Part shown: piece after piece, positions 39,087 to 59,232 of the stretch
Position numbering within the stretch: position 1 is the stretch's first letter
How the letters are laid out: each line of letters starts with the position of its first letter
From: an uncultured Spirochaetota bacterium
GTDB taxonomy: Bacteria; Spirochaetota; B62-G9; DRHN01
Assembly (NCBI GenBank): GCA_964433545.1
Contig: CAYSRJ010000003.1
Span: 64,904-128,903, forward strand
DNA: 64,000 nt
Direction of reading: 5' to 3'
Program-made: the position numbers and the translations under genes
Notes under the pieces: generated by a model
Told to the model about the DNA's origin: nothing
Database searches by the model: none
What the model saw: the letters and a program-made list of their open reading frames with translations, nothing else

Positions 39087-39099
39087 ATAACACCCTGTA

Positions 39100-42721: not shown

Positions 42722-44206
42722 TCAATCCTGCTCGTAAGCTCCAATTGACCAGGCTCCGTCCCGGGGGTTGTCGTCCCGGTCGTAGTTGAACTGATCGTTG
42801 AAGAAGGTCGACCCGCCGCCCTTCACCTCAGCAGGGGAGCCTGCGGTGAGATGCCAGTCGTTGTCATCTATTGTTGAAACATCGTTGTCAGTGCCGTCAA
42901 GGTCTGCAAATACCGGATCAGAATCGATGTTTCCACCGGCAAAGCTCTGATCATTGACACCGCTTCCGCCCTCCAGTAACGGATAGTTGCTGCCATTGAA
43001 ACGCAGATAGATGGCACCGCCGTAACTCCAGAGATCGTTCGCATACAACGCTTTTGGGTACGCTGTAGTATCCGCGCAGTAGACGCAGTACTGGGTACTG
43101 ACGCCTGAGATAAAGACGATATTGTTCCGTATATCCGGCTTGGCTCCGAGGCTGAGCGTGATACCGTATGCATCGTCGCTCACTCCACCGTCTATCGTGT
43201 TGTTCACGATGTATCCGGTCGAAGAGTTACTAACCTCCATTCCCTGGGATCCGCCGGTCGGATCTCCTGCGTACAAAAGGTTATTCCGTATGAACATATC
43301 TGACGCTAACCCGATAAATATTCCCGTTGCATAATTACCGTTCTCACCGCCGGATATAGTGTTGTTTTCAACCACACCTTTCGAGCCATTTATTCTTATA
43401 CCGGTTGTACCACTGTTACCGTCATTGAAGTCACCGTAACCACCGTATATGAAGTTGTCCCGTATGGTAATCGAGTCGCTGCCCTGCAGTCCGATACCGC
43501 CGCAGTCAATCCCCTGCCCGGTATAAATATCGTTTCCTTCCACCATGGTTTCTCCAGTTACACTATCGATAAACAGGGCAGTGGTCGCACCTACCGCCGT
43601 ATCACCGCTGTACAGGGTACAATTCTCAATCGTGCTGTCCTGACCATCCATACTAATGCACTGAGTATCCCCCGGATTTCCAACAGCATCCCCGCCGTAC
43701 ACCGTGTTGTTGCTGAAGCTCACGTTGCCATGTATACTTACCGCGCGCGAGCTTCCCGAAACATCCGCGCCTTCAATGGTAAAACCGTCCATGATCGAGT
43801 TAACCAGCGACATGGTGTTAACCCACTCTCCTGATGTGCGGGTGTCAGTGATTGTTGTTTGATAGGTTGTGATACTTCTGTTGCTGAAGTCAGGAGAATA
43901 CCCACCATAGATCTCGTCATTTTCAAAATCGAGCTGTTCAGTCGTGACATTGTAGGTCCCCTTTGCAACGTGGATGTTGGCAGAATGCGCCTCTTCACTG
44001 CTCTTCATCAGAAGCGCTGCCTGTATGGTTGCAAGTGGTCCTTCCATTGTTCCATCGTTTGAATCGTTTCCTGTACTGCTGCTTACATAAATGGTAATCG
44101 TGCCCCCTACACTTCCACTGTTATCTCCCCCTCCGCTGCAGCCGATGAGGAGCAGCATGCTCACCAAGAAAACCGTTGCAAGAGCAGCAAAACCGCATCC
44201 TTTCAT
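42722..44206 (-). CDS. secreted right-handed parallel beta-helix repeat lipoprotein (pectate-lyase/NosD-like fold)
   Basis: Lipobox LLLIGCSGG. Many tandem G-x-N/D-x-I beta-helix rungs (NNTVYGG, ENNTISGG, IRNNLLYAG, VNNTIDGG). Confidence 0.7.
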   Translation of the reverse strand: MKGCGFAALATVFLVSMLLLIGCSGGGDNSGSVGGTITIYVSSSTGNDSNDGTMEGPLATIQAALLMKSSEEAHSANIHVAKGTYNVTTEQLDFENDEIYGGYSPDFSNRSITTYQTTITDTRTSGEWVNTMSLVNSIMDGFTIEGADVSGSSRAVSIHGNVSFSNNTVYGGDAVGNPGDTQCISMDGQDSTIENCTLYSGDTAVGATTALFIDSVTGETMVEGNDIYTGQGIDCGGIGLQGSDSITIRDNFIYGGYGDFNDGNSGTTGIRINGSKGVVENNTISGGENGNYATGIFIGLASDMFIRNNLLYAGDPTGGSQGMEVSNSSTGYIVNNTIDGGVSDDAYGITLSLGAKPDIRNNIVFISGVSTQYCVYCADTTAYPKALYANDLWSYGGAIYLRFNGSNYPLLEGGSGVNDQSFAGGNIDSDPVFADLDGTDNDVSTIDDNDWHLTAGSPAEVKGGGSTFFNDQFNYDRDDNPRDGAWSIGAYEQD

Positions 44207-44727
44207 CTTTTCCCCCCTTTTAATAAAAAATTTAGTGATATGTCATCATTTTATTGTACCACATGGCCCACATAACAGTGATCATACGCTTCCGTTCCAC
44301 CATTTAAAAGCTCCTCTGATTCAGTAAGGAACATGCGCCACCGGAGTTTTTTAGGAGAACATCTCCTTCGGGCGTAACAGGACATGTTCACGATTTCAGT
44401 GCATATTTTCACCATACAACTTAATTATATTATGTCAATAATGAATTTTAGTAGTAAAGATCTATAAAAAATCTTATTTTTAGATATGAACGTTTTTAAT
44501 AATATTATTCCAACTATGAAATAACTTTGTGGGTATCATACGTAATTATTTTTCTGTAGAATCGGCCCCATACAACCGAATATCATAGGGTAATTTTTTT
44601 AATGCGTTTACTAAGAGGTGGGGTACACTGCTGGAGCAGCTGAGTATCAACGGGTCATTTTTTCAAGCTACTGAAAACACTGCAGGCCGCCCTTCAGACG
44701 AGTATCCTGCAATAATCTGGAAAAAAA

Positions 44728-45738
44728 TTATATAATGGGCACGTACTGTTGCGCAAGATCGAAACAGGAGATAATTGCCTCCTCCATGCTCACCGGATTC
44801 GCCGTTCCCTTCCACGCAATGTCAAATGCCGTGCCGTGATCGACCGAGGTTCTGATAAAGGGAAGGCCGAGAGTAACGCTCACGGTACGGTAAAAATCGT
44901 ACGTTTTTGCCGCAATATGCCCCTGGTCATGGTAGAGGGATAAAACCGCGTCGAACTCGCCTTCGAGCGCACGATGAAAAACACTGTCTGCAGGTAGGGG
45001 CCCCTTAACATCCGTTCCTCTCTCCCGCGCTTCCGCACAGGCGGGAACGAGAATCTCCGCCTCCTCGCTGCCGAAAAGCCCACCGTCAGAAGCATGGGGA
45101 TTGAATGCCGCAAGGGCGAGCCTTCTTTTTACGTATCCCAGAGAGCGCAGGCAGATATCAGCAAAAAGGATACTGTCTGTGACTCCCGCGATATTCAATT
45201 CCTCCATCATCTTTCTGAGGGAGATGTGCCTTGTATGGAAGAATATCCTGAGATTGTCGACCATGAACATGGTAACACTGCTGGAGGAGCCTGCCATGTG
45301 TGAGAGCATCTCGGTATGGCCTTTAAAGGAGAACCCCGCCTTTCGAAGTGCCTCCTTGTTTATCGGCGCCGTCGCAATCCCGTCAACCTTTCCGTCCAGG
45401 GCAAGATCGGCTGCTTTTCGTACACAGGCCACTGCAGCCCTGCCGCCGAGCTTGGATATCTCGCCAACCCTGAATGAAGAAACATCCTTTACAATCCCAG
45501 TATCGATGACAGGAACCGCATCTCCCGTATCCAGAGCCTCATCAACACTCTCAACCCGCCTGATTTTTACATCCATACCAAGCCGGTCCCGCACCGCTTC
45601 CATCACCGCCATGTCGCCACACACAACAACTGTCCCCTTTACTCTGACGACCCTTTCAGAGGTGCATGCCCTGAGCACGATCTCGGGCCCAACACCCGAA
45701 GGGTCCCCCATGGTTACGGCGATTAATCTCCCCTTCAT
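44728..45738 (-). CDS. pdxA: PdxA-family NAD-dependent 4-hydroxythreonine-4-phosphate / 4-phospho-hydroxyacid dehydrogenase
   Basis: IAVTMGDPSGVGPEI N-terminus; HTEMLS and HDQGHIAAK metal-site motifs. Confidence 0.85.
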   Translation of the reverse strand: MKGRLIAVTMGDPSGVGPEIVLRACTSERVVRVKGTVVVCGDMAVMEAVRDRLGMDVKIRRVESVDEALDTGDAVPVIDTGIVKDVSSFRVGEISKLGGRAAVACVRKAADLALDGKVDGIATAPINKEALRKAGFSFKGHTEMLSHMAGSSSSVTMFMVDNLRIFFHTRHISLRKMMEELNIAGVTDSILFADICLRSLGYVKRRLALAAFNPHASDGGLFGSEEAEILVPACAEARERGTDVKGPLPADSVFHRALEGEFDAVLSLYHDQGHIAAKTYDFYRTVSVTLGLPFIRTSVDHGTAFDIAWKGTANPVSMEEAIISCFDLAQQYVPII

Positions 45739-46373
45739 TTACTCCTCCATTTCCGGTACATACCACCGACCCCGGCATTACGAACACGTTTTTCGTTCGA
45801 ATAACCCAATTCATTTTTTCTTTTTTCTTTTCAGCATGTTTGTTAACCGTTTACCAACCCTCGAAACCTGCATCTGCACCTGTTCGGCTTTCTAGGCCAT
45901 ATCGGAAAGCATGCTTTCCCGCTCCGTCGTACATAGAACAAGATCGAGTTCGTTTTTGGCATTCAATACGGGTAAGAGCTCGAGCATGGCATCAAAATAC
46001 TTCTTTCCTGACGTGAGAGCTGTGATATCTTGTCAAGCTCCCGAAACACCTGAACGTTTTTCCTGCCCATGATAATATAGAGCACGGCTACGATCACATT
46101 TGACTTTTCACGTTTCTTCATAAACACAGTGCCCATACCGGAGAGACACTTTCGATCCGGGTTTTACGTAATATGAATATCTTCTTTTCAGTGCTCCAAT
46201 ATAACATAGTGTACCCGCACGGAAAACTTCAAAAAAGAGCGTGGCTTTGCATACAATTGTCATCAACACTTGTTGTTCAACAGGGGTTCGAAACGAATGG
46301 AAATGATGTTGCATGGAAACGCATGAATCATGAGGAAGAAGAGACGCCGGTTTAGAATTGATCCACCGGGATT

Positions 46374-47870
46374 TTATCTGTGATGTATCACTCGATATAG
46401 CTGTTCACCGATACGTTCCTGAGAGTACACCCGTTCTACCACCTCCTTGTTTACCTGTACCAGCGCTTCCCGGCGCTCCTGGTCGAAGAGCCGCAGGGTT
46501 GCAAGCACACTCGTTTCATTGCGGTCGATGAAACCCTTTACGTATCCAGGATTTTTGAGCTTAAGCACCTTCTTCAGTCGTTCCTGCAGGCCCAAATCCG
46601 GATCTTTTTCGGCATTTCCAATATCCTTGTAATCCTTACCGTCAACAATCAATGCATTGTAGAGATGACCAAGCTTCATGCCCGCAGCCTGAAAGTCGGG
46701 TGTTGTGTAGGGAATGCTTCTGCCGATAACGGCCCTGTCCAGCAGCCAGGGTTCTATATAGGAGAATCCGAATCCCTCCAGAACACTCGTGGTGATGACA
46801 AGGTCTGAAGCGCTGTAAAGATCACCTATACTGTAACTGACTATTTTCGAGCTGTCCACCGGATCATACTCGCGTTCAAGTGAGATGAGGTCTCCGAGGC
46901 CGATAGTCACGGGCAACCCATGTTTCTGTACGAATCCAACGAGCTGGTCTGCATACACAGCGTCGTCACCCGATCCCGGTTTGATGCTCACGAGCAGGTG
47001 AGAGGGTTCCTTCAACCTGCAGTTGTCCCGCACCCCGGTATTATCGACGAGGCGGTTGAAAAAATTGATGAGGAATATCGCCTCTTCCACATTCTTCCGG
47101 CGCACACAGCGCACAGGATAAAGGAGAAATCGAATGTCGGGGCTCAGGCCTTCCCTGGTGATAATTTTTTCACGAAGCTCTTTTCTGCGGTCATCGGGAG
47201 GCACGATTGTCCTGTCAACCGGATTGGGGACATAGTATATGTTTTCCTCTTCAATGCCGTGCTCAAGAAGCCGCATTCGATCATAGCGGTTTATAGCGAT
47301 GTACGTAATACTTGGGTACGCAGGATAGAGAATGCTGTGCCAGTCAGGCACCACCCCGAACCTAGGGTGATGAAACTTCTTTACATTCCTGAAGAATGCA
47401 GGGCGCTGCTGTACAAAGTCATGACATCGGTAGATAAACCTCTTGCCCATCCCCCTGGTATATGCATACTGCGTATACAGGTAGAATGCATAGGTGATAT
47501 AGGGCTGTATACCGATCCCCAGGTTTTCAATCATGATGATATCCATATCGGCAAGTTTGTCCACCAGCACCTCGGCCAGATTGGTGCCCATCCATACGTA
47601 ATCCTGCACCTGCTGATCGAAAACCGTTTTACCACTAAGCCTGCCGGCAGCCTCCTCAGCGTTGAACTCGTCAATATTTCGAAAATCCACGTTCGGAGGC
47701 AGGGGCTTTATGAAATCCTCATAATCAGGGGCCAGCTTGCCAAAGAGCGTAATTCTCATGTCGGGATCGATAACACTCAGGGCGCGTACATTCCGTGCAA
47801 TCACCGTGTTTACGCCATCTCTGAATCCGATGCCGTAGTGGCCGATCCCGAGGTGCAGCTTTTTTTTCAT
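46374..47870 (-). CDS. GT-B glycosyltransferase, GT4-like (498 aa)
   Basis: C-terminal retaining GT4 E-x7-E type motif (VLEGFGFSYIEPWLLDRAVIG). Last gene of the operon. Confidence 0.6.
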   Translation of the reverse strand: MKKKLHLGIGHYGIGFRDGVNTVIARNVRALSVIDPDMRITLFGKLAPDYEDFIKPLPPNVDFRNIDEFNAEEAAGRLSGKTVFDQQVQDYVWMGTNLAEVLVDKLADMDIIMIENLGIGIQPYITYAFYLYTQYAYTRGMGKRFIYRCHDFVQQRPAFFRNVKKFHHPRFGVVPDWHSILYPAYPSITYIAINRYDRMRLLEHGIEEENIYYVPNPVDRTIVPPDDRRKELREKIITREGLSPDIRFLLYPVRCVRRKNVEEAIFLINFFNRLVDNTGVRDNCRLKEPSHLLVSIKPGSGDDAVYADQLVGFVQKHGLPVTIGLGDLISLEREYDPVDSSKIVSYSIGDLYSASDLVITTSVLEGFGFSYIEPWLLDRAVIGRSIPYTTPDFQAAGMKLGHLYNALIVDGKDYKDIGNAEKDPDLGLQERLKKVLKLKNPGYVKGFIDRNETSVLATLRLFDQERREALVQVNKEVVERVYSQERIGEQLYRVIHHR

Positions 47871-47899
47871 CCTCTCACCCCCTCGCTCATTCCCTAATG

Positions 47900-49096
47900 T
47901 CAGGTTTGTTGTGTTTTCAGGAGGGCCCGATCCCTGAGACTGATAGGAACGGTTTTTTTATCGACCATCACCTTCCTGTACAGTTTTATATGTTTCTGTG
48001 CTGTAATGTTCCATCCGATAGATTCACGGACATACCTGATCGCCCGTTTACTGTACTCAGCCTTAAGATCGTCGTCTTCCATGATGTTGATAATTGCTCG
48101 CTTTAATTCTGTGTCATTACCAGGCGGCACCGCTAATCCTGCACCGCTCGCCTCTACTTCTGCTTTGAGTCCCGCGATTCCGGAAGCTACAACAGGAACG
48201 CCGAGAGAAAAGGAGTGGGCAAGATTTCCACTCTGTGAGGCAAAGGTATACGGCATAACCATTGCGTCAAAGGAGGTGAGAATCCGCTCATACTCCTCGG
48301 GTGAAAAACTTCCCAGCAGCACCTTGATACTGTTCTTTGCAGCACTCTTTTCGACAATGTCGAGGAGTTTTTTCTTGTACTCGATCTGTTGGGGATCTCC
48401 AAGCCGTGCATCACCTGCGAGCACCAGAACCGTTTCAGGGTCCAGATGGCCGAACACCTCATCCCACATAGACAGCACCCGGTGAAATCCCTTTGTGGGA
48501 GTGAACCAGCCGAGCATACCGAGCACTTTCTTGCCCCTCAGACCGAGCGCATCCTTCGCTTTACCCCTGGAAATGGATTTTCGTACTGATGCACCGTGAG
48601 GTATGACATACATATTATCCACGATGCGGCCCAGGTTTGTGTGGAGATAGGCCCACTGGTAGACTGCATGCACGATCCCCGCATCTACAAGCTTTTGCAT
48701 CGTATCCATGTATGTGCTGATCATGAAGCTCAGCTCTGTGTACACGGAATGGTAGGTTACAACCACGGGAGGCTTGCCCTCGGCTTTCCACCGAAACAAT
48801 GGTCTGAAGAGGCCGCTCGCATTATCCCCGCCGGTGCGGTAGAGTCCGAACTCATGCTGAATATGCACGACATCAGGCCGTATGCTCTTAACTACCTCGT
48901 ACACAGACTCATCCCAGCCGTGATGATCGGTATCGATTACCGGATATACATTTTTTTCTCCCGGAGCTCCGCCATCCGGATGACAGATAATAGAGACCTC
49001 ATTGCCCTCGCGCTGTATCGCGTCGACCAGCTCTTTTGAGTAGGTTGCTATGCCGCAGTGCCGCGGAGGCCAGCTCGACAACCATGCAATCTTCAT
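47900..49096 (-). CDS. glycosyltransferase family 4 (glycosyl transferase group 1)
   Basis: MKIAWLSSWPPRHCGIATYS N-terminus; C-terminal GT4 domain (VVASGIAGLKAEVEASGAGLAVPPGN). GAGGAGAG SD. Confidence 0.8.
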   Translation of the reverse strand: MKIAWLSSWPPRHCGIATYSKELVDAIQREGNEVSIICHPDGGAPGEKNVYPVIDTDHHGWDESVYEVVKSIRPDVVHIQHEFGLYRTGGDNASGLFRPLFRWKAEGKPPVVVTYHSVYTELSFMISTYMDTMQKLVDAGIVHAVYQWAYLHTNLGRIVDNMYVIPHGASVRKSISRGKAKDALGLRGKKVLGMLGWFTPTKGFHRVLSMWDEVFGHLDPETVLVLAGDARLGDPQQIEYKKKLLDIVEKSAAKNSIKVLLGSFSPEEYERILTSFDAMVMPYTFASQSGNLAHSFSLGVPVVASGIAGLKAEVEASGAGLAVPPGNDTELKRAIINIMEDDDLKAEYSKRAIRYVRESIGWNITAQKHIKLYRKVMVDKKTVPISLRDRALLKTQQT

Positions 49097-49133
49097 AATA
49101 GTCTCTCCTCAGATATTGATAAACTCATTGTTA

Positions 49134-50207
49134 TTACAAAAATTCTTGCGGTTCGCATCCCAGACCCGGCCGGTCTCCCGCATAAAGCACTCCGTCTCTC
49201 AGAATGAGAGATCCTTTTGTCGGGTCACCCTGGAGTCCCATGAATCCATCCAGATCCGCATAGAGCACATTTGACCGCGCAAGGGCAAAGTGGAGGCCGG
49301 CGGCTATTGCAAGCTCACACTCATCCATACAGCCAACCATCACCTCGAGACCGGCCGATCGAGCCACGGCGTTTATCATAAGTGCTTCATAAATTCCCCC
49401 GGCTTTCATTATCTTGATGTTCACCATATCAACAAGCTCTCCGCGAGCAAGGCGGAATGCATCCCTGAGCGACAAGATGCTCTCATCCGCCATAATGGGA
49501 ATAGCCGCCTCATGCGTTACTGCCCCAAGCAGGGGAAGCTCATCTCTGGGTGTCGGCTGCTCTAAAAGTTCGATACGGGTGCATTCTGTTTCTCGTATGA
49601 ACCGCATTGCCTGTTCCTTTGAATAACCCTGGTTGGCATCGAACCGGAGCTCCAGTTCATCGCCTGCTTTTTTCCGCACCCGCAGGATACGCTCGATATC
49701 CTCTTCCACGTTCAGGCCGCCCTTTAGCTTAACCGCTGTAAACCCGCTTCTCATATATGAGAGTACCCGCTCAACGGTTCTGTCAACCGGGAGTATACCC
49801 ACGGTGATGCTGGTTTTTATGCACGGCCGGTATCCACCGAGCAGCTTCCAGAGCGGAAGGCCGCATACTTTCCCCAGTATGTCGTGCAGGGCCATATCGA
49901 CACATGCTTCTGATGAAGGATGTCTTTTGAGATGAGGCCTGAGTTCCTCAAGCAGCAGAGCTATGCGAAGCGGGTCTCGCCCTCGCAGAGCAGAATCGAT
50001 CGTATCACGCACATCCTGCATAACCGTATCTGCCGTTTCTCCTGTAACCGCCCGGTCAGGAGCGGCGCAGCCGTAGCCAACGATACCCCCATCCGTTTCC
50101 ACGCGTAGAAACACGTTCACCGCTGTTTCAACCCGTTCATACGCAATAGAGTAGGGTTCCTTGAGGGATAAGGAAAGTGGATGTGCCTCGATTGTTCGTA
50201 TCTTCAT
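49134..50207 (-). CDS. enolase-superfamily MR/MLE member, dipeptide (L-Ala-D/L-Glu) epimerase or N-acyl-amino-acid racemase subgroup
   Basis: Catalytic KxK (AVKLKGG), D (RFDANQG), E (LLEQP), D (MADES), and second K (NIKIMKAGG). Confidence 0.85.
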   Translation of the reverse strand: MKIRTIEAHPLSLSLKEPYSIAYERVETAVNVFLRVETDGGIVGYGCAAPDRAVTGETADTVMQDVRDTIDSALRGRDPLRIALLLEELRPHLKRHPSSEACVDMALHDILGKVCGLPLWKLLGGYRPCIKTSITVGILPVDRTVERVLSYMRSGFTAVKLKGGLNVEEDIERILRVRKKAGDELELRFDANQGYSKEQAMRFIRETECTRIELLEQPTPRDELPLLGAVTHEAAIPIMADESILSLRDAFRLARGELVDMVNIKIMKAGGIYEALMINAVARSAGLEVMVGCMDECELAIAAGLHFALARSNVLYADLDGFMGLQGDPTKGSLILRDGVLYAGDRPGLGCEPQEFL

Positions 50208-50209
50208 TT

Positions 50210-51010
50210 TCAGTACCGTTTCTCGTGTATCTCATCCATGTTGAGATGCCTTAAATCATCCACGAAACGAACAAGATGTTCAATCATGATATGCCACAGC
50301 CGTTCACCCTTTTCACGAGTTGCTTTCGTTGGGTCTCCCAGAATTCCACTCCGTGAAATCTTCTCTGTCTGCGTATACCACTCAACGCTTCTGCTCGTAC
50401 TGAAGTTGAGATACCTGCTCGAAAATCTGGGGATTGATTTCTTTGCCTTTTTCATATCGACCAATTCGGGTCTTACTGCCAGAGCAGTGCTTGTCTCCAT
50501 TTCTCCGGCATGAGCGTCGTTTGGGGTTTCGATAATTTTCTGCACATCCACGTCACTCGTCTCACCGGTATCGACACAGGCGAAGATGCGGGCTTCACGG
50601 TTTATCATCTGGGCCGCATTCTGTAACGCAGGACCATTACCCCCGTGACCATTGATGATCACCAGCTTACGTACACCGTGACGCACTATACTCATACCTA
50701 TCTCATACACCAGCCTGGTGAGAGTCTCATTGCTGAGGCTGATAGTACCACTGAACCCCATGTGATGGTAAGATACACCATAGGGGACCGCCGGGAGCAC
50801 GATGGGTTTCGGTTCGCTCAGTGCCTCTGCAACTGCTCTGGCAAGATACTCCGCATCGAATGCATCGGTGTCCAGGGGTAGATGAGGGCCGTGCTGCTCG
50901 GTGGAGCCTACGGGAAGAAGCGCGATATCGATATCGGAGAAGCGCTGTTTTGCCTCAACCCAGGTAAGTTCCCCAAGCAAGATACCAGATTTCCCTTTCT
51001 TCACATCCAT
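50210..51010 (-). CDS. creatininase-family metal-dependent amidohydrolase (paralogue 2)
   Basis: GELTWVEAKQRF ... ALLPVGSTEQHGPHLPLDTD signature. The start is taken at the ATG 6 nt after AAAAGGAGA; an earlier ATG at 51031 overlaps the upstream stop. Confidence 0.8.
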   Translation of the reverse strand: MDVKKGKSGILLGELTWVEAKQRFSDIDIALLPVGSTEQHGPHLPLDTDAFDAEYLARAVAEALSEPKPIVLPAVPYGVSYHHMGFSGTISLSNETLTRLVYEIGMSIVRHGVRKLVIINGHGGNGPALQNAAQMINREARIFACVDTGETSDVDVQKIIETPNDAHAGEMETSTALAVRPELVDMKKAKKSIPRFSSRYLNFSTSRSVEWYTQTEKISRSGILGDPTKATREKGERLWHIMIEHLVRFVDDLRHLNMDEIHEKRY

Positions 51011-51027
51011 CGACATTCTCCTTTTTA

Positions 51028-53595
51028 TCATACCGAAAGTGGATCAAAACTCCGCCACTGGACATTTTCTCTTCTGAGCGCTCCCCGGGCATGCTGGAGA
51101 TAGATGCGAAACAGTGGTCCTCGTATTTTGGGAGGTATGGTTTCAAAAGGTGAGTGCTCGGCGTCGAAACGAAGGCTCTCCACCTCAGGATGAGGCGTTG
51201 CCCCTCCAGAAAGCATCCCCTTCTCACTGAGCAGGTAGAGAACATGATCCATAACAGAAGACTCCTGATGCAGGTGCATGCAGGGCAATTCTCCAATACA
51301 CGCTGCCACCTGTTTTTCCGTATAGCCGCAGAGGGACGGATCTGCGTCCACTGCTTTTAACATCCCTATAATGCGTTGACACTTTTCACACTTCCCGCAT
51401 GGTCGAGTACGATTCTGTTCTATCGAAGCAGCATGACAGGATACTTGATTGCGCTGCAATTGGGGGTACCGCTCCACAAGTATCTTTTGTACCATCAACT
51501 CGGAAAGTGGCCGAAGAATGGAAAACTGCTCGATACCGTATCCCTTGGCGTTGAAGTAGTTGCTCAGCGTAAGGTCGAAGTATCGACTCTGATCGTAAAG
51601 GCCGTCGTAATGCGGGATTCCTTGCAAGAAGCAGCGTCGTGTTGTATCGTATTCGTCACCAATAAGCAGAAGCCCAATGCCACGTTTCCTGAGCACAGGA
51701 AGCGCGCCGAATAGAAACACGGCTACAGTCCAGAGCCGTATCGGATAGTCATCAGCCCGTATATCAAGAAAATTCTGTCTGATAAAGGGAAAATGTTCGA
51801 GCATCCAGGAAAAAACACGGTCAGAGTTGGTCCACACCCTGGCGGTTCGCTGAATCCCGGACCTGAATGCACGGTAGCTGTTCAGTGCCGTGTACCAGTG
51901 TCTTCCTGATTCGTTGATAAACACCGGATGAGCCTCTATACAGATCTCATCCATAAGCCCGAAACTCAGGAGGCTCTCCTTTCCCCCGCTGGTCAGTACG
52001 GCACAGCGGTTTCGATCGGTATCCCAGCACTGTAACGATTCGGGCTGTAGATCGGGAAATAAAAGCTCGGCCTGCACATAGGATGGCCTTTTCTCGATCT
52101 TCATGGGATGAAATCCGGCTATAAGAAACGGATTGTGCTCGAGAAACTTCTTCACATATATTTCCCTCGCCGTATTACGGAGCATGTAACTGAGAAATCG
52201 TCGATCGAACTCATCGTATACACCGTGCAGAACAATGCTCCGGCAGAAAAGACCGTAGTTGAGCGCAATCTGCACAGCTATCATAGACGCCAGGTTTGTT
52301 GATGCCGTGTCTTCAGGCTGAAACATCTCCTCTTCAAAGCGGTATATTAGATCGATGCTGTCGACCGCACCTCCCCTGTGAATCGAATAGGGGGCTATAA
52401 CGCGGTCCCGCTCTACACGAATTGGCCCCACCACGAGCGAGTCGATGATACGCAGGCTACTGGTTTCTTCGCCCCAGGATTTTCGTTCCTTCTGCTTCTT
52501 GCGGTACTTCCTGTTCACCTCGGGTTTGTATCGAACGAGATGCGCTGCAACTTCATCCGCCCCCGAAATGAGTACGTCGGCAACAGGAAGGCCCGTCTCT
52601 TTTGAAATACGACTGCAAACGTGCCTTATTTCTTCCGGTTTCAGACCTTCATGGTTCAGGGTGACAGCACCGACCGGTCTTCCCGAAACGATTTCCAGTG
52701 CCTTTATCTGCAGGCCGAGCGGATGTAGCGCATATCCGGGAAACCCGTCGTACTCCTTCCGCGAAGGCGCATGCTGAAGCACGATAACATCGGGACGTCC
52801 TGCTGTAAGTATCTCCATTCCGCCCGGGTAGGCCGGATTCAGGAAGCTTCCCTGCCCTTCAATCAAAATCACATCTGGGTGGTTGTCGTGCCAGGCCTGC
52901 CAGACCGCATTCTCGATCTCGCCGGTCACGAAATCAACAATAAGGGAGTCGATGATGATGCTGTAGTGCGCCCCCTGCATCCATGCCGTCTGACCCGTAC
53001 CGACGAGCTCGACGCCGAGCCCCGCCTCCCGGAATGCATCGTACAGAATCCAGGCTGTTGTTCTCTTGCCGAGCGCAGAATCCGTTCCGAGTACCGCAAT
53101 CTTCAGTGATTTGACTTCCTCGATTTTTCCGCTGAAGAAGTGCATTTCCTCTCTGGGAGGAAGCTTCCGTATATCGCGTAACCTGACGTTGTGCCGAGCG
53201 GCAAGTTCTGCAAAAACCGGATCTTCGGATAGTAAATGGTGCAGACCGCTATCCACATGGAGCCCGAGACTGATTGCCCCTTTCACATCCTCCCGCGCTT
53301 TTTCGTTCAACCTCCCACCGTCCGGCGCAAGGCCCACAACAAAATGAGTGGCCTGCGTACCGGCTTCCTCAGCTGCCTTTACGGCAGCGGCCAGGTCTTC
53401 AAACACGGGAATACCCGTAGCTCTGCCGTCGAGCACCTCGCCCGCATCCCTTCCCGTATAACGGCTGTCGATTACGGAAAGAACGCGGTAGCGCTGGGTT
53501 CGGCGTACGAGACCGTGGGCCGTTTTGCCGTTCGTTGTCGCGAAGGCCCCCTCGCAGTACACGATTGCGTTGCCATCGGGCCAGTGATTCATCAT
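51028..53595 (-). CDS. two-domain fusion: N-terminal DUF1611 (DgcN-like) domain + C-terminal PP-loop ATP-pyrophosphatase (adenine-nucleotide alpha-hydrolase) domain with Cys4 zinc ribbon
   Basis: N-terminal region LKIAVLGTDSALGKRTTAWIL is the DUF1611 P-loop-like motif. C-terminal region AVLTSGGKESLLSFGL is a PP-loop SGGxDS variant. CGKCEKCQRI...C is a QueC-like zinc motif. GGGAGGAG SD. Confidence 0.65.
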   Translation of the reverse strand: MMNHWPDGNAIVYCEGAFATTNGKTAHGLVRRTQRYRVLSVIDSRYTGRDAGEVLDGRATGIPVFEDLAAAVKAAEEAGTQATHFVVGLAPDGGRLNEKAREDVKGAISLGLHVDSGLHHLLSEDPVFAELAARHNVRLRDIRKLPPREEMHFFSGKIEEVKSLKIAVLGTDSALGKRTTAWILYDAFREAGLGVELVGTGQTAWMQGAHYSIIIDSLIVDFVTGEIENAVWQAWHDNHPDVILIEGQGSFLNPAYPGGMEILTAGRPDVIVLQHAPSRKEYDGFPGYALHPLGLQIKALEIVSGRPVGAVTLNHEGLKPEEIRHVCSRISKETGLPVADVLISGADEVAAHLVRYKPEVNRKYRKKQKERKSWGEETSSLRIIDSLVVGPIRVERDRVIAPYSIHRGGAVDSIDLIYRFEEEMFQPEDTASTNLASMIAVQIALNYGLFCRSIVLHGVYDEFDRRFLSYMLRNTAREIYVKKFLEHNPFLIAGFHPMKIEKRPSYVQAELLFPDLQPESLQCWDTDRNRCAVLTSGGKESLLSFGLMDEICIEAHPVFINESGRHWYTALNSYRAFRSGIQRTARVWTNSDRVFSWMLEHFPFIRQNFLDIRADDYPIRLWTVAVFLFGALPVLRKRGIGLLLIGDEYDTTRRCFLQGIPHYDGLYDQSRYFDLTLSNYFNAKGYGIEQFSILRPLSELMVQKILVERYPQLQRNQVSCHAASIEQNRTRPCGKCEKCQRIIGMLKAVDADPSLCGYTEKQVAACIGELPCMHLHQESSVMDHVLYLLSEKGMLSGGATPHPEVESLRFDAEHSPFETIPPKIRGPLFRIYLQHARGALRRENVQWRSFDPLSV

Positions 53596-54703
53596 CTCCT
53601 CCCCGTGAGAATCACAACGTATCTGCCGGGCTCGAGGCTCCGCTCCCGATACCCATTCGCGAGAACGGCCAGTCCCGCGGTGGAGGCAGGAAGTACACTG
53701 AGCCCCTCCTGTTCGCGGACCATTCGCGAAAAGGACATCATACTTCTATCTGAGACATACCCGGCAAGCCCACCGGTTCTCCGAATGGCTTCCAGTGCAA
53801 GGTCACCGTCGATGGAGTGCCAGTTGATGAGCGGTTCGTTGATCTTTGTTTCCCGTATGTCCTCAGCAGAAAGATCCTCGCAGGACGGCAGGTTTTTCAG
53901 ATACGCCTGAACGATCGGATTTTTCCCGTACGAGGAACCGGCAATAAGTTTTGGAACATGGGACGTTTTTCCACGTCTGTACAGGCTGACGAAACCTTTG
54001 TACAGGCCTGCAAGGGTGGTCCCGTTGGACACCGGAACTGCAACGGCAGTCGGGGCGTCACGGAGCTCATCGTATATCTCATAGGCAATCTCGCCGTACG
54101 CACTGAGCTGTAGAGCGGTATTTTCACCCCCGGGATTTGCGTCGTAGATCTCTTTTTCCGCTGCGTACTCCTGTGAGAGCTGTACTGTCTGTTCATAGTC
54201 ACTTGGGGTCCTAATGATCTCGGCACCGAATTTCCTGATCTCATCGATACGTTTTGTCTGATAGTTTTTAGGTATGAATATGAAACACTTGAGCCCTGCC
54301 ATGTACGATGCAAGTGCGATAGCCACACCATAATTGCCGCAGGTAGCAACGGTCACTGCGTCGTATCCGCGCCTGAGTGCATCCATGCCCTGGGCAAAGG
54401 CGATACGATCCTTCTGTGTGCCTGTCGGGTTGCTCCCTTCGAACTTCATATAGATCTGTCGAAGCCCTATCTCCCGTTCACTGTTCCGGGTGCGGGTCAT
54501 GGTTGTGTCGCCCACCTGCGACTCGAATATATCCTCGTATGCCTCGAGGCGTTCTTCGACGGTGAACTCAGGAGAGGATGCAATCTGGATCTGCCTTTCC
54601 GTATCGATGAGTATATCAGGCGAGTCCGGAGTGGCACCGTCGATGAGAGAAAAATTTCTATTCGATGAAGGTGAGCTGTTCTGGTCTTCTGATTCATTCA
54701 TAT
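53592..54703 (-). CDS. PLP-dependent fold-type II enzyme, threonine-synthase-like
   Basis: FEGSNPTGTQKDRIAF (PLP-Lys motif related to NPTGSFKDRG) and a glycine-rich loop. The start is taken at MNESEDQ after GAGGAG; the track ORF begins further upstream at 54833. Confidence 0.75.
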
Positions 54704-55014
54704 TCGGCGGCTCCTCGTTACAATTAATAAAAACACCGAAAATGTACTGTATTGCCCCTATTCTCCCCTGCTCCGGAAAACAGGCACGTACTAAAAAGAT
54801 AGGCAAGTGCACTTTCAATCGTAAAAGGTTCAACCAATACTTGCCGAATGGTTTTTACCTTAATTTCCCAATGCTAAAAAAGCCATGGAAAAGAAAAAGA
54901 CCGTAATCTATTGTAAATTCTTGTACAAAATACCAGATTTTTAATGAAAAAACCATACATATAATTTACCATTGCGAGCAACTGAAACAGACCCATGATA
55001 ATCTTGTCAGTGAG

Positions 55015-55473
55015 ATGAAGAAAGAGATCGATAGCGGGGAAATCCAGATCAAGCAGGTCAAAGGCCGCCTGCAAATGACGATGGCGGAACGTCTGTTCTT
55101 CGAATCCGGCAAGGCTGAGATAAAGCCGGAGGGGCAGGCTGTGCTGCGTCGTGTCGGGCCAACCCTAAAAAAGATACCCGAGAAGAATATCAGGGTCGAG
55201 GGCCATACCGACAATGTGCCGATCGGACAGTCACTGCGTACGCAGTATTCCACTAACCGGGAGCTTGGAGCAGCACGGGCGGTCAATGTGGTGCGTTTTC
55301 TACAAAATGAGTCGAGTATCGATCCCCTCCGTCTGAGCGCAGTCTCCTACGGCCAGTACCGTCCCATCGCAACAAACAAGACCAAACAGGGACAGTCAAA
55401 AAACAGACGAATCGAGATCATACTGATCGACAGAGATCTGGACCTGGCGAAGAAGATGCGACAGTATCTCTAA
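55015..55473 (+). pseudogene. MotB/OmpA-like C-terminal peptidoglycan-binding domain; the gene lacks the N-terminal TM/linker part (5'-truncated remnant)
   Basis: LFFESGKAEIKPEG...VEGHTDNVPIG...NRELGAARAVNVVRFL...NRRIEIIL is a MotB/OmpA C-domain. The ORF starts directly inside the linker, and the upstream sequence is non-coding with an in-frame stop. Confidence 0.55.
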
Positions 55474-55636
55474 GATGCGTGTTTTCATAAACCAATTTGC
55501 ATTCTGTATGAAAGGTATTACAGTTTCGAAAGGTCCGCCAGTCTTCATTATTTAGGTTGTCATCGATACCAAGTTTCGATATACTTCTGTATCATACGTT
55601 GTGTAAGAGTTTCGTTTTATTGCAAAGGAGGAACGC
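55474..55636. repeat. diverged segmental duplicate (copy 1) of the promoter and first codons of the Omp85-like gene at 60035..61207
   Basis: The 24 bp gatgcgtgttttcataaaccaatt are identical to 61193-61216. On the minus strand this is ATGAAAACACGCATC, that is MKTRI, the start of the Omp85-like protein. The next roughly 110 bp are about 75% identical. Confidence 0.55.
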
Positions 55637-55882
55637 ATGAAATTCATCATTGGTATCATTATCGGCATTCTCGTTATCGTATTTATGGTGCAGAATGTAG
55701 AGGTTGTCGATATAAGCTTCCTTGCATGGACCATGCATCTACCCCGTGCAATCATGATAATGATTGTCTTCGTTCTTGGCATTGGCGTTGGATACATTGC
55801 ACGCGGTGTTCGCACCCGCAAGAAGGAGAAGAAGGAAGAGCTCGAAGACCTGAAAGAATCTGTAAAGGACGTACGGAAATAA
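55637..55882 (+). CDS. small inner-membrane protein, LapA/YciS (DUF1049)-like
   Basis: MKFIIGIIIGILVIVFMVQNVEVVDISFLAW...IMIMIVFVLGIGVGYI, then a charged tail. AAAGGAGG SD. Confidence 0.6.
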   Translation: MKFIIGIIIGILVIVFMVQNVEVVDISFLAWTMHLPRAIMIMIVFVLGIGVGYIARGVRTRKKEKKEELEDLKESVKDVRK

Positions 55883-56010
55883 CAACGAGTCCCTCTACAC
55901 CTGTATTATTCTGAATATCCTTTTTTTATATCTCCGGAAATACCGTATACTAAAAGCATCAATTAAAATACAGATAGAAATCATGCGCCATCATCTAAGG
56001 ATTCATACGT

Positions 56011-56457
56011 TCACTCGTGAACTGGTGAAAACCAGACAGCCCGATGATGCAGCCGCACACTTCCCCGCACCCACTGCCATGCCTTCTCAGCTAAACGGCG
56101 CGTCAGAAGAAGAAGGAGGTCGTCAGGTACACCTGCTGCCCGAAAGGATTGCGACGAAACGCCACACTGGTCGTTCATATAATCAATCACTACGAATTTA
56201 TTACTACGTTTGCTCATGGCTGTTTCACATGAAAACCATTCGATACGGACAATATCGGCGATATCAGACGCAATTCTGACCATCGACATCAGCCTGTGCT
56301 GCTCGAACTCTCGGATCATCGCATGCCGGTACACACCGCTTTGTGGATTCCACCAGCAGGGAAACAGCTCCCCGAACAGGTAAAAGATCCTGAACCATGC
56401 AACCATCCCCTCAAATACCTCCAGCTCCACAAACTCCTGCAGGAGAAATTTGTCCAT
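56011..56457 (-). CDS. hypothetical protein (149 aa), no recognised family
   Basis: The ATG at MDKFLLQEF lies 9 nt after AAAAAGGTG. Divergent from glgP. Confidence 0.45.
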   Translation of the reverse strand: MDKFLLQEFVELEVFEGMVAWFRIFYLFGELFPCWWNPQSGVYRHAMIREFEQHRLMSMVRIASDIADIVRIEWFSCETAMSKRSNKFVVIDYMNDQCGVSSQSFRAAGVPDDLLLLLTRRLAEKAWQWVRGSVRLHHRAVWFSPVHE

Positions 56458-56715
56458 TTTTCGACACCTTTTTCTAACCATGCATGTTAAATATACTATG
56501 CGTTCAGGTGCAAATCCATACGAGTATCTGCCTGAACACCCTCTCTCGACACAGCATTGACAAAAACCTACTCAATTATGCTCATCCTGGAGGGATGGTC
56601 GATAAAAATTCCGGTATCATCATCAAAAAGTAATCAAAAAAATTGCAGATACCACAACATATTCCATTTGTAATTATTTGGATTATAATTATAATCAATA
56701 TAAAGGAATCCCTCA

Positions 56716-59232
56716 ATGAGCAAAACAACATCCAAACAACAAACCAGACCATCTCTATCCGTGGCGGCATTTAAAGGAACAGACCCGGCAAGCCTTGAGG
56801 ATTCCTTCAGGTATCACCTCGAGTACTCCCTGGGTAAGGACGAGTACAGCGCTACACAACGCGACCTCTTCAAGAGCCTTGCCATGACGGTGCGGGACCT
56901 CCTGTTCGAGCGCTGGACCGAAACTCAGCAGACCTACTATCAGAAGGCGGCAAAGAGGGTATACTACCTGTCCCTGGAGTTTTTGATCGGGAGGATGCTC
57001 AGCGACGCCCTCATAAACCTGGGGATATACGAAAATATGCGAAAAGCCATGACCGCACTCGGCTGTGATATCGAATCTCTCAAGGAAATCGAGTTTGATG
57101 CAGGCCTCGGTAACGGCGGCCTGGGACGCCTTGCCGCCTGTTTCATGGACTCAATGGCCACACTCGGCATACCCGCATACGGGTACGGGATCCGCTACGA
57201 GTATGGTATCTTCTTCCAGAGAATAAAAAACGGGTACCAGGTGGAGACGCCCGACAACTGGCTGAGGTACGGAAATCCCTGGGAGATCGAGCGTCCCGAG
57301 CACCTCTATCCCGTGAAGTTCTATGGGAGGGTGCACCAGTCCACCGATGACCATGGAAACTTTCACTGTGGCTGGGTGGACACTCAGGATGTCCTGGCCA
57401 TGGCCTACGATACGCCCGTGCCCGGATACCGGAACAACACGGTGAACAACCTCCGGCTCTGGTCCGCCAAATCAACCCGGGAGTTTAATCTCGACTACTT
57501 CAACCACGGAGACTACGAACGGGCTGTCGCCGATAAGGCCCTTTCGGAAACCATCTCCATGGTCCTGTACCCCAACGACAACATGTTCGAGGGGAAGGAG
57601 CTCAGGCTGAAGCAGGAGTACTTCTTCGTATCTGCAACCCTGCAGGACATCATGAGGCGTTTCAGGAAGACCAATCCAAAAGGGTTCCAGCGATTTCCCG
57701 AAGAGGTCACAATACAGCTCAATGACACGCATCCGGCCATTGCAATACCAGAGCTCATACGTTTGCTTGTTGACGAGGAGCAGGTGGGCTGGGACGAGGC
57801 ATGGGATATAACAGTCAGGAGCTTTGGGTACACAAATCACACGATTATGGGAGAAGCGCTGGAGAAATGGCCGGTGAGTCTCATTGGGCGCGTTCTTCCC
57901 CGGCACCTGCAGATCATCTACGAGATCAATCGGCGTTTTCTCGATCATGTACAATCGTTGCTCATCTCCGACAACGACCTCAAGATTCAAAACCTCTCCC
58001 TTATTGAGGAGGGGGCCGAAAAGAGGGTGCGGATGGCCAGCCTGGCGATCGTGGGCAGTCATTCTGTGAACGGTGTGTCGGAGATCCATACCGGGCTGCT
58101 TAAAAGTGTGCTATTCAGAGATTTTTATGAGCTCTGGCCTGAACGGTTCAAAAATATAACCAACGGAATCACACAGCGCCGATGGCTGAAGATATGCAAC
58201 CCTGAGCTTGCGGAATTAATCACCAGCCACATTGGCGAGGGATGGATCACCGATCTGTCCCAGCTGGAAAAGCTGGTTCCCCTCGCCGATGATGATGGAT
58301 TTCAGAAATCGTGGCTGGAGGTCAAACTGAAAAACAAGAAGAAGCTGGCAGAGTTTATCCCGAACCATGTAACGGTCAATCCATCCGCACTCTTCGACTG
58401 CCAGGTGAAGAGATTCCACGAGTACAAGCGTCAGCTTCTCAATGCCCTGCACATCGTGTACCTTTTCAACCGTATAAAGAGGGGCAATAACCCGATGCCC
58501 GCGCCCCGGGTGTTTATTTTTGCCGGCAAGGCGGCCCCCGGGTATTGGACGGCAAAGCTCATCATCAAACTTATTAATTCCATTGCCGACAAGGTGAATC
58601 ATGACAAGGATGTGAATGACAGGATGAAGGTCGTGTTCCTCTCCAATTACGATGTCTCACTGGCAGAGCGGATCATCCCGGCCGCCGATCTATCCGAGCA
58701 GATTTCAACGGCAGGAACCGAAGCTTCAGGGACTAGCAATATGAAGTTTGCACTCAATGGAGCCTTGACCATCGGGACCATGGACGGTGCCAACGTCGAG
58801 ATACTTCAAGAGGTCGGCAAGGAGAACTTTTTCATCTTCGGATTGACCACCGAGAAGATAGGGTCCTTACGAATTTCAGGGTACAATCCCCGGGAGTACT
58901 ACGAGGGCAATCCGTATTTGAAAGAGGTGATTGATCTCATTTCGAACGGATACTTTTCACCCGACGAACCGTCGCTCTTCAAACCCCTTGTCGATTCACT
59001 GTTAAACGGGGGCGACCCATATCTCCTGCTGGCGGATTTCGCCGACTATCTTCGATGCCAGGAAGAAGTGGTAAAAACGTACTTAAATAAAAGTAAATGG
59101 ACACGGATGTCGATCTTAAACGTAGCTCACATGGGTAAGTTTTCAAGCGACCGTACGATTCAAGAGTACGCGCGGGAAATCTGGGATATCAAACCGGTTC
59201 TTGTCGAAGCTCCCCCACCAGAGTCCGTGTGA
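56716..59232 (+). CDS. glgP: glycogen/maltodextrin phosphorylase
   Basis: EFLIGRMLSDAL, GNGGLGRLAACFMDS and the PLP-lysine site EASGTSNMKFALNGA. AAAGGAAT SD. Confidence 0.95.
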   Translation: MSKTTSKQQTRPSLSVAAFKGTDPASLEDSFRYHLEYSLGKDEYSATQRDLFKSLAMTVRDLLFERWTETQQTYYQKAAKRVYYLSLEFLIGRMLSDALINLGIYENMRKAMTALGCDIESLKEIEFDAGLGNGGLGRLAACFMDSMATLGIPAYGYGIRYEYGIFFQRIKNGYQVETPDNWLRYGNPWEIERPEHLYPVKFYGRVHQSTDDHGNFHCGWVDTQDVLAMAYDTPVPGYRNNTVNNLRLWSAKSTREFNLDYFNHGDYERAVADKALSETISMVLYPNDNMFEGKELRLKQEYFFVSATLQDIMRRFRKTNPKGFQRFPEEVTIQLNDTHPAIAIPELIRLLVDEEQVGWDEAWDITVRSFGYTNHTIMGEALEKWPVSLIGRVLPRHLQIIYEINRRFLDHVQSLLISDNDLKIQNLSLIEEGAEKRVRMASLAIVGSHSVNGVSEIHTGLLKSVLFRDFYELWPERFKNITNGITQRRWLKICNPELAELITSHIGEGWITDLSQLEKLVPLADDDGFQKSWLEVKLKNKKKLAEFIPNHVTVNPSALFDCQVKRFHEYKRQLLNALHIVYLFNRIKRGNNPMPAPRVFIFAGKAAPGYWTAKLIIKLINSIADKVNHDKDVNDRMKVVFLSNYDVSLAERIIPAADLSEQISTAGTEASGTSNMKFALNGALTIGTMDGANVEILQEVGKENFFIFGLTTEKIGSLRISGYNPREYYEGNPYLKEVIDLISNGYFSPDEPSLFKPLVDSLLNGGDPYLLLADFADYLRCQEEVVKTYLNKSKWTRMSILNVAHMGKFSSDRTIQEYAREIWDIKPVLVEAPPPESV

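Follow-up and report, generated by a model that had tools for sequence, protein, structure and literature searches.

Six packed genes of an uncultured Spirochaetota bacterium comprise a conserved A-D core of DgcN-like, QueC/MurL-like, creatininase-type and dipeptide-epimerase-like domains and a separable glycosyltransferase pair

What might a cell make, or break down, with a threonine-synthase-like enzyme, a DUF1611 protein fused to a PP-loop domain, a creatininase-type amidohydrolase, an enolase-superfamily epimerase and two glycosyltransferases, all encoded head to tail in what looks like a single operon? This question is raised by a 64,000-nucleotide stretch of DNA from an uncultured Spirochaetota bacterium (contig CAYSRJ010000003.1, positions 64,904 to 128,903 of the forward strand; hereafter, the window), in which the list of open reading frames (ORFs) gives six consecutive genes on the minus strand at 46374-54701, here named A to F. 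The initial annotation treated the six as one unit and as a candidate novel pathway. Our analysis separates them into a core, A-D, that recurs in fixed order across bacterial phyla, and a glycosyltransferase pair, E-F, that stands beside this core in a few loci and occurs elsewhere without it. We favor, with a probability of about 0.4, a reading in which the two are co-transcribed modules, A-D building and stereo-editing a small amino-acid conjugate and E-F acting as a separate glycosyltransferase pair.

Gene A (53592-54701; 369 amino acids) encodes a fold-type II pyridoxal 5'-phosphate (PLP) enzyme that resembles threonine synthase. Gene B (51028-53595) joins DUF1611_N and DUF1611_C to about 480 residues without a Pfam family, and is treated here as two halves: B1 (52516-53595), DgcN-like, with a Rossmann-like DUF1611_N and a P-loop DUF1611_C domain, and B2 (51028-52482; about 480 amino acids), a predicted QueC/MurL-like PP-loop ATP pyrophosphatase. 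Gene C (50210-51031; 273 amino acids, or 266 if it starts at 51010) belongs to the creatininase family of metal amidohydrolases, gene D (49134-50207; 357 amino acids) to the MLE subgroup of the enolase superfamily with a likeness to dipeptide epimerases, gene E (47900-49096; 398 amino acids) to the GT4 glycosyltransferases, with an atypical motif, and gene F (46374-47870; 498 amino acids) to the retaining-type glycosyltransferases of GT-B fold, as a distant relative of mannosylglucosylglycerate synthase (MggS). The domain calls made initially for the six genes all hold, by Pfam and NCBIfam or, for gene F, by predicted structure. All six genes are real and tightly packed as described, although gene A begins at 54701, 2 nt away from the end first given (54703). 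The ATG at that position is preceded by a GAGGAG Shine-Dalgarno sequence, corresponds to residue 45 of the mechanically called TTG ORF, and yields the same 369-residue protein that independent gene calls give on identical public contigs. For gene C, 51010 is the likelier start, with AAGGAG 7 nt upstream, and gene callers report the 266-residue form. Genes A and B overlap by 4 nt, B and C either overlap by 4 nt or are separated by 17 nt depending on the start chosen for C, and the remaining gaps measure 2 nt (C/D), 37 nt (D/E) and 29 nt (E/F).

The core is strongly conserved. We read 88 related loci, judging gene order wherever a contig reaches and viewing neighbors within about 10 kb, and found the five domains A, B1, B2, C and D in fixed order in all 88 as far as the contigs extend, with identities of 53-71% to the window proteins across phyla; order is retained far more than chance would allow. 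The possibility that the genes are not co-conserved elsewhere can thus be set aside for the first four. One metagenome scan gave at least 496 stretches with a gene for a B2 relative, and a B2 profile search of 1.84 billion representatives returned 620 proteins at E <= 0.001. Searching with gene B recovered about 28 full-length DUF1611-PP-loop fusions as well as many PP-loop domains of 55-58% identity that are fused to a creatininase or stand alone. Where the source names them, relatives are labelled Gemmatimonadota, Acidobacteria, Planctomycetota, Desulfobacterales, Chitinivibrionia and Eisenbacteria; the closest locus (L001, 93% identity) is a Spirochaetota metagenome-assembled genome. Precomputed annotations likewise place PALP, DUF1611, PP-loop-creatininase and MR_MLE genes next to one another in a complete Gemmatimonadota genome and in metagenome contigs.

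The way in which the domains are joined varies. The dominant architecture, A, B1, B2-C, D, accounts for 35 complete loci plus partial ones, and the B2-C fusion is found in more than 50 loci; in most lineages, the counterpart of gene C is fused to the C-terminus of the PP-loop domain, and B1 is a separate gene in most lineages other than that of the window. The arrangement A, B1-B2, C, D belongs to the window and its relatives, all five domains are separate in L022, and a creatininase is absent from L008, L030, L047 and L067. These alternative fusions argue that B1, B2 and C are functionally linked, and they suggest that the DUF1611, PP-loop and creatininase proteins act on the same or on consecutive intermediates. 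One archaeal-looking locus, L007, has A and B1-B2 only and may represent a minimal form of the system. Its genes at 6909-10469 lie among archaeal-type neighbors (UPF0113, ribosomal S10, alternative haem genes) and comprise a PLP gene of 313 amino acids without the N-terminal extension and a DUF1611-PP-loop fusion of 40% identity, with no creatininase or enolase gene. The initial remark that the combination matched no nameable pathway is borne out: the literature searches did not turn up any publication about it, and A is the only core member to exceed an NCBIfam equivalog cutoff.

What, then, does the PP-loop domain do? B2 carries the motifs SGGKES (residue 536), SCHAA (719) and CGKCEKC (733). 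Cysteines C720, C733, C736 and C739 form a C-x12-C-x2-C-x2-C array of the QueC type that is invariant in the family alignment, and the S, G, G, K and S of the PP-loop are invariant in 18 family members. A sequence search of the PDB with B2 gave noise only, and the window protein has no hit to Pfam QueC (PF06508); 11 of the 18 relatives match this model weakly (best E 0.011). We turned to an AlphaFold model built on 18 homologues (mean predicted local distance difference test score, pLDDT, 83.8), whose best Foldseek matches were QatC (9y01_B), QueC (2pg3, 3bl5) and Cap9 (9nto_B), with a probability of 1.0, followed by TtuA, NcsA, YcfA and asparagine synthetase. Target-normalized TM-scores were 0.59-0.68 for 2pg3, 3bl5_A and 9nto_B, and 0.38 for 9y01_B. 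The NCBIfam MurL model (NF041275) was weakly matched by 18 of 18 family members, at 19-38 bits against a cutoff of 700 (18.7 bits for the window protein), and a distant relative, P0366, bridges the two families: it aligns to the B2 family over 326 columns with an hhalign probability of 99.9% and matches the MurL model over 225 residues with an E value of 7e-10. Because of these motifs, the fold matches, the weak MurL and QueC hits and the P0366 bridge, we regard B2 as a predicted QueC/MurL-like PP-loop ATP pyrophosphatase, which sharpens the PP-loop call first made on gene B; that call is supported by SGGKES, the four-cysteine motif and the predicted fold.

By analogy, this likeness points to carboxylate activation and amide formation. 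QueC adenylates a carboxylate and then adds ammonia, and QatC and Cap9 join a carboxylate to a protein amine. B2 has in common with these enzymes the SGGxxS PP-loop, the C...CxxCxxC zinc motif and the fold, which would imply that a carboxylate is first adenylated and then attacked by ammonia or an amine. It differs from them in a sequence identity of only 13-16% with sub-threshold Pfam QueC scores, in carrying some 150 additional residues as an N-terminal subdomain and a long helical stretch at the C-terminus, and in being fused to DUF1611 or creatininase without queuosine or defence partners. The prominence of QatC and Cap9 at the top of the Foldseek matches could be taken to mean an anti-phage system related to QatABCD or to the type IV cyclic-oligonucleotide-based signalling systems (CBASS), with a QueC-like enzyme conjugating a deazaguanine to protein. 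This we consider extremely improbable, as none of the six proteins has a significant PADLOC match, QatA, QatB, QatD, CD-NTase and nuclease partners are all missing, and the actual partners are without exception small-molecule metabolic enzymes, kept in fixed order across phyla and showing uniform composition and no sign of a mobile island.

A further route for a PP-loop enzyme is sulfur insertion, for which TtuA, NcsA, LarE and YcfA are models. Here, an Fe-S PP-loop protein would thiolate an adenylated carboxylate or carbonyl, with a cysteine-synthase-like PLP partner, to give a thio-amino acid or thiocarboxylate. TtuA, NcsA and YcfA do appear among the B2 fold matches, four cysteines are invariant, the carriers are mostly bacteria of anoxic sediments, and a rhodanese gene lies upstream of the core in L006. 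However, the C-x12-C-x2-C-x2-C spacing is that of the QueC zinc site, the best folds are QueC, QatC and Cap9, and no gene for a ThiS/MoaD-like sulfur carrier or a cysteine desulfurase is conserved nearby, so that we give sulfur insertion a slim chance.

For MurL, in turn, epimerisation of a C-terminal Glu has been proposed to proceed through adenylation of its alpha-carboxylate (PMC8788868). In addition to the remote homology of the PP-loop core (weak matches throughout the family and the P0366 bridge), B2 and MurL are both ATP-dependent and both stand beside chemistry on a C-terminal amino-acid residue. The differences are that B2 scores 19 bits where 700 are called for, that neither a MurD2 partner nor a Mur ligase gene is present at the window locus or the related loci read, and that the operon has its own enolase-type epimerase, so that B2 need not epimerise. 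If the resemblance were taken at face value, the cluster might supply a D-amino acid such as D-Glu to the cell wall in the manner of MurD2/MurL, with an L-residue held on a handle, epimerised at the expense of ATP and released. The remote homology, the proposed MurL reaction and the likeness of D to L-Ala-D/L-Glu epimerases would suit such a role, which we nevertheless hold to be very unlikely in view of the weak MurL scores, the lack of a linked mur gene in any locus read, the presence of A and B in the archaeal-type locus L007, and the missing Glu-binding Arg of D described below.

Gene D, which has the Pfam domains MR_MLE_N and MR_MLE_C, scores 236 bits with the Bacillus subtilis L-Ala-D/L-Glu epimerase YkfB (1jpm), 234 bits with the E. 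faecalis structure 3jva and 222 bits with 3rit of M. capsulatus. Its residues K160/K162, D190, E216, D241 and K265 align with those of 1jpm and are kept in 48 orthologues, confirming that the KxK/D/E/D/K catalytic set is complete, as first noted. D318-L-D320 aligns with FDFD of YkfB within a YADLDG segment conserved in the same number of orthologues (n = 48); the DxD motif of dipeptide epimerases binds the N-terminal ammonium group of the substrate. At the position of YkfB Arg24, a residue of the 20s loop that binds the Glu side chain, gene D has E24, and this Glu is conserved in orthologues. The substitution argues against an L-Ala-D/L-Glu substrate and would be compatible with a cationic side chain. 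Against the DgcA model (NF042940), gene D scores 146.6 bits (cutoff 400), whereas dipeptide-epimerase models and structures score higher (223.5 and 236 bits), and gene D is closer to dipeptide epimerases than to DgcA. Even so, and despite an identical K-x-K, D, E, D, K and DxD complement, it departs from the characterized dipeptide epimerases in the Glu at the Arg24 position, in scores below the equivalog cutoffs (223.5 bits against 500 for NF041118; 86.5 against 343 for NF011708), and in genomic partners that are not murein-recycling genes.

B1 matches DUF1611_N at 82.9 bits and DUF1611_C at 207.2 bits, finds 2g0t, 2obn and 7xrj by sequence in the PDB, and retains an intact Walker-A-like P-loop (GTDSALGKRTT, residue 170). 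B1 resembles DgcN along its entire length, but with the DgcN model (NF041892) it aligns over residues 72-352 at 142.1 bits, far below the equivalog cutoff of 480. DgcN is a D-glutamate N-acetyltransferase and DgcA an N-acetyl-D-glutamate racemase, and the two work in D-glutamate catabolism. The initial annotation had equated B1 and D with this pair; the likeness stands at the level of the families, but neither protein is an orthologue (142 of 480 and 147 of 400 bits). What the two systems share is a DUF1611 protein and an enolase-superfamily racemase or epimerase in one operon, to which the amidohydrolase present here would add the last step of an acylate, epimerise, deacylate logic. Beyond the scores, they differ in that B1 and D are kept apart here by the PP-loop domain and the creatininase, that a PLP enzyme is always present, and that gene D retains the DxD motif of dipeptide epimerases.

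These relationships also raise the opposite direction of travel, an extended DgcN/DgcA or YkfB/YcjG-type recycling route that would import and convert the muropeptide L-Ala-D-Glu, N-acyl-D-amino acids or D-Glu to usable L-amino acids, with A as the final deaminase or dehydratase. The nearest characterized relatives of B1 and D indeed act in D-Glu catabolism, those of D also in murein-peptide recycling; many fold-type II PLP enzymes are ammonia-lyases; transporters of the major facilitator superfamily (MFS) flank the core in about 18 loci; and an L,D-transpeptidase with DUF882 lies upstream in a few loci. An LD-carboxypeptidase (Peptidase_S66) adjoins the core as well, yet in L010 alone, and the neighbors as a whole do not point to murein recycling: the recurrent neighbor clusters include neither a binding-protein-dependent peptide transporter nor an endopeptidase or MpaA/YkfC-like gene conserved alongside the core, and the window itself has no linked LD-carboxypeptidase, gamma-D-Glu-DAP endopeptidase or amidase, or peptide transporter. 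The suggestion that orthologous clusters might prove to be peptidoglycan-recycling operons is thus not supported by the loci read. Together with the Glu in place of YkfB Arg24, the unusual ATP-consuming PP-loop step, and a high conservation, fixed order and archaeal A plus B1-B2 that better fit a biosynthetic housekeeping or stress role, this makes catabolism or salvage an unlikely account of the core.

Of the remaining core proteins, gene C matches Pfam Creatininase (PF02633) at 258.4 bits (cutoff 31.3), falls just below the MftE cutoff (168 against 172 bits) and further below that of the creatininase equivalog (132.4 against 235); mycofactocin genes are absent from every locus read. It contains the motifs STEQHGPH, LDTD, NGHGGN and HAGEMETS, giving the E-x-H...D, H, E pattern of the family's metal ligands. 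Gene A matches Pfam PALP at 190 bits and has a conserved N-terminal extension of about 60 residues, its PLP lysine within NPTGTQKDR (residue 97) and an ATCGNYG motif invariant among 52 orthologues. It passes the NCBIfam model NF004996, 'threonine synthase', at 415.9 bits (cutoff 266), and annotation pipelines will therefore call it a threonine synthase. The model evidently covers this very gene family, and its name is probably a family label and not a function. Gene A fails TIGR00260 thrC (91.1 bits, cutoff 167.1), is always found inside this operon, and carries Y and Q at the positions of T88 and R160 of T. thermophilus ThrC, which are ligands of the substrate phosphate, within motifs that are invariant in the 52 orthologues. 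For these reasons, the pipelines' naming is a probable systematic misannotation.

We next consider whether the glycosyltransferases belong to the same pathway. Gene E exceeds the Pfam cutoffs for Glycos_transf_1 and Glyco_transf_4, but at residues ~283-297 the sequence PYTFASQSGNLAHSF replaces the GT4 E-x7-E motif, as it does in all relatives read (L001, L006, L094, L095 and L096); the motif region reads SQSGNLAHS, with Q...H instead of E...E. Judged from its sequence, gene E may be non-catalytic or mechanistically atypical. Gene F gave a sub-threshold GT4 match in Pfam, but its AlphaFold model (pLDDT 83.6) has a GT-B fold for which Foldseek finds GlgM, BshA, archaeal glycogen synthase, MshA, SPS and TreT (E ~1e-12 to 1e-9), and E365-x7-E373 is invariant in its family. 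Relatives of F form a well-conserved family of their own, with members in Spirochaetota and Desulfobacterales. All 29 aligned members match NCBIfam MggS (NF041101; best E 5e-21), the sole NCBIfam family that all 29 match, at scores far below its cutoff (47.7 bits for the window protein, equivalog cutoff 640). The GT-B fold, the EX7E motif and the GH130 and glycogen genes that neighbor F relatives elsewhere resemble MggS and other small-acceptor GT4 enzymes, whereas the low score (48 bits against 640), about 80 additional residues in a helical region at the C-terminus and a partner, gene E, without EX7E set the pair apart.

The pair lies beside the core in the order of the window in L001, L002, L009 and L011, and convergent to it in L006 (61-63% identity). 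In about 80 of the 88 core loci, neither E nor F has a relative within 10 kb. Conversely, E-F follows a malic-enzyme gene in L095, with no core within 10 kb, and in L096 follows genes for a debranching enzyme, glucan phosphorylase, glycogen synthase, branching enzyme and GH130, with no core in the 10 kb upstream and the contig ending about 1.4 kb past F. In L094, it follows genes for PvlArgDC, a deoxyhypusine-synthase (DHS)-like protein, agmatinase and GH130, and a core of the dominant architecture lies about 8 kb away. An arrangement of polyamine genes, GH130, GT4 and F is repeated there near that core. Since the pair occurs without the core (L095, L096), 8 kb from it (L094) and convergent to it (L006), E-F is a separable glycosyltransferase module of small-acceptor type, recruited beside the core in this spirochaete lineage, and the claim that the six genes form one conserved unit is not sustained.

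It could still be that all six genes serve one pathway, the glycosyltransferases decorating the A-D product to yield a single glycosylated D-amino-acid derivative. The six genes are co-oriented, with gaps of at most 37 nt and uniform composition; E-F stays beside the core down to the 61-63% identity of L006 and lies 8 kb from a core of another architecture in L094; glycosyltransferases of a different, MGS-like type directly follow D in L040 and L067; and BshA and MshA, among the nearest structural relatives of gene F, glycosylate small acids or polyols. On the other side stand the roughly 80 core loci devoid of the pair, the pairs beside malic enzyme and beside glycogen genes and GH130 without a core, the convergent orientation in L006, the missing catalytic-motif glutamates of gene E, and a sigma-70-like hexamer pair within the D/E gap. 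We regard a single pathway as distinctly unlikely. Recent horizontal insertion of genes E and F was considered separately and is ruled out by the uniform GC content (0.50-0.535) and third-codon-position GC content of the six genes. The region upstream of gene A, which the initial annotation had proposed to check for a regulated promoter, gave no sigma-70 site in a consensus scan of the minus strand at 54702-55000, and no sigma-54 promoter either in the window or in 58 orthologous upstream regions. Rfam gave no riboswitch or leader RNA match at E <= 1 in window positions 44000-57000.

The recurrent neighbors of the core, identified by clustering all ORFs of the 88 loci and scanning representatives against Pfam, bear on the nature of the product. 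At 56011-56481 on the minus strand of the window, a 156-residue ORF is the 3' remnant of a RimK-like ATP-grasp gene. Window positions 56454-55905 align to 8162-8710 of L001 at 92% identity, and the preceding ~3.1 kb of L001 (5061-8162), with a DHS-like gene, PvlArgDC, agmatinase and the 5' half of the ATP-grasp gene, are missing from the window. The intact protein of L001 has 322 amino acids, with weak RimK and ATP-grasp_3 Pfam matches. Three loci (L001, L002 and L010) have the ATP-grasp gene directly upstream of A, two (L040 and L048) between C and D, and one (L043) downstream of D; the gene is part of the ancestral cluster, and only a remnant is left in this genome. An assembly artefact as the cause of the truncation is ruled out by the independent assemblies L089, L090 and L092, which have the same arrangement. 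Between the remnant and the operon, about 1.2 kb carrying OmpA-like and LapA-like ORFs replace 153 bp of L001. These plus-strand ORFs encode an OmpA-family C-terminal domain (55015-55473) and a LapA_dom membrane protein (55637-55882); LapA_dom genes, with a glucan phosphorylase, are also seen near the core of L008.

L001, L002 and L094 each have genes for PvlArgDC, a DHS-like protein and agmatinase, and L012 has the DHS-like and agmatinase genes. The relatives' polyamine set, with its pyruvoyl arginine decarboxylase, and their K+ genes occupy 4939-8605 and 17709-21004 of L001 and 5042-11500 of L094; K+ uptake is represented by a TrkH-like protein in L001 and K+ channels in L002 (by sequence reading), and by Ion_trans_2 and TrkA in L094 (by precomputed Pfam matches). 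The window has none of these polyamine or K+ uptake genes. In L040 (8590-9930) and L048 (8612-9937), a gene resembling lysine-ketoglutarate reductase/saccharopine dehydrogenase lies between B1 and B2, and in L022 (1693-7429) and L043 (13149-18171), a lysine-2,3-aminomutase, a GNAT, a GNAT-HDAC and two Ddl-like ligases adjoin the core; the aminomutase-acetyltransferase set of these two loci resembles the genes for N-epsilon-acetyl-beta-lysine. Glucan phosphorylase is found in five loci in addition to the window and L001, a glutamine-synthetase-like gene near the core in four, and sigma-54 activator genes beside 15, with MscS, MFS transporters, YitT/DUF2179 and Ser/Thr kinases as other recurrent neighbors. 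A mechanosensitive-channel gene is also found after D, like the MGS-like glycosyltransferases, in L040 and L067. Each of these associations is a minority pattern; taken together, they suggest a connection with cationic amines, with amide ligation and with osmotic or stress adaptation.

Combining these observations, we propose the following sequence of steps for the two-module reading. Gene A would make or supply a non-standard amino acid by beta/gamma-replacement or elimination, or may remove one instead. B2 would adenylate the carboxylate of an amino-acid or dipeptide-type substrate and couple it to an amine or ammonia to give an amide, and B1, in the manner of DgcN, would transfer an acyl group from a coenzyme A thioester to an amine. 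D, with its two lysines as the acid/base pair, would epimerise the C-terminal residue at C-alpha by way of an enolate stabilised by Mg2+, and C would remove the acyl or aminoacyl handle, or open or close an amide. The B1, D and C steps would mirror the acylate, epimerise, deacylate logic known from the DgcN/DgcA and N-succinyl-amino-acid racemase operons. The ATP-grasp ligase would assist in some lineages, its contribution being lost here. The expected product is a small compound of dipeptide-like or N-acyl D-amino-acid type, which may also be amidated or linked to an amine and is probably related to stress or osmolyte function. E-F would make a glycoside and may or may not use the product of the first module. 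The gene neighborhoods suggest that both modules serve stress or osmotic adaptation, and the earlier mention of an unusual compatible solute thus finds circumstantial support from these neighborhoods. In a more novel form of the proposal, B2 would represent a new branch of QueC/MurL-type PP-loop enzymes serving as a carboxylate-amine ligase, with the DUF1611 acyltransferase, the enolase epimerase and the creatininase-type hydrolase at its side. A-D would then be a hitherto unrecognised pathway, present in many phyla, to a new D-residue-containing dipeptide, amide or polyamine conjugate that sediment bacteria use as a compatible solute or stress metabolite, and the MggS-like pair would glycosylate it in this spirochaete lineage. 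We consider this form unlikely.

Several points weigh against the two-module reading. Every chemical step is derived from the superfamilies to which the proteins belong; A is the only core member above an equivalog cutoff, and its label is itself doubtful. The DxD motif of gene D suggests a substrate with a free N-terminal amine, which is awkward if B1 has already N-acetylated it. Most loci lack an ATP-grasp, polyamine or osmotic-stress gene within 10 kb, and the neighbor associations, as minority patterns, could reflect the shared ancestry of a few lineages. The archaeal-looking L007 has A and B1-B2 only, and epimerisation and hydrolysis are therefore not essential to a minimal function. The A-D pathway could run in a biosynthetic or a catabolic direction, and gene E, which has no EX7E glutamates, may be inactive.

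Elsewhere in the window, we noted a radical SAM/SPASM gene (33126-34535, minus strand), a pair of UPF0261 and phosphoenolpyruvate-hydrolase-like genes (34860-36981, plus strand), TctA/TctC tricarboxylate transporter genes (37483-40161, minus strand) and a gene for a predicted lipoprotein of 494 amino acids (42722-44206, minus strand) with a Cys-containing signal peptide, Gly/Asn/Asp-rich repeats and a weak DUF7537 match only.

The unit of interest is thus a common, strongly conserved and uncharacterized core of four genes and five domains. It is a variation on known stereo-inversion and PP-loop ligase chemistry and not a categorically new system, but environmental bacteria carry it commonly, the at least 496 stretches of the metagenome scan coming from Gemmatimonadota, Acidobacteria, Planctomycetota, Desulfobacterota and Spirochaetota, among other phyla, and its largest domain, B2, has no Pfam family. 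The alternative gene fusions provide a testable hypothesis as to which steps are coupled. Solving the core would assign functions to DUF1611 proteins that act outside D-Glu catabolism as well as to one creatininase clade and a new clade of QueC/MurL-like enzymes, would correct the probable 'threonine synthase' misannotation, and might reveal a new D-amino-acid-containing metabolite or osmolyte.

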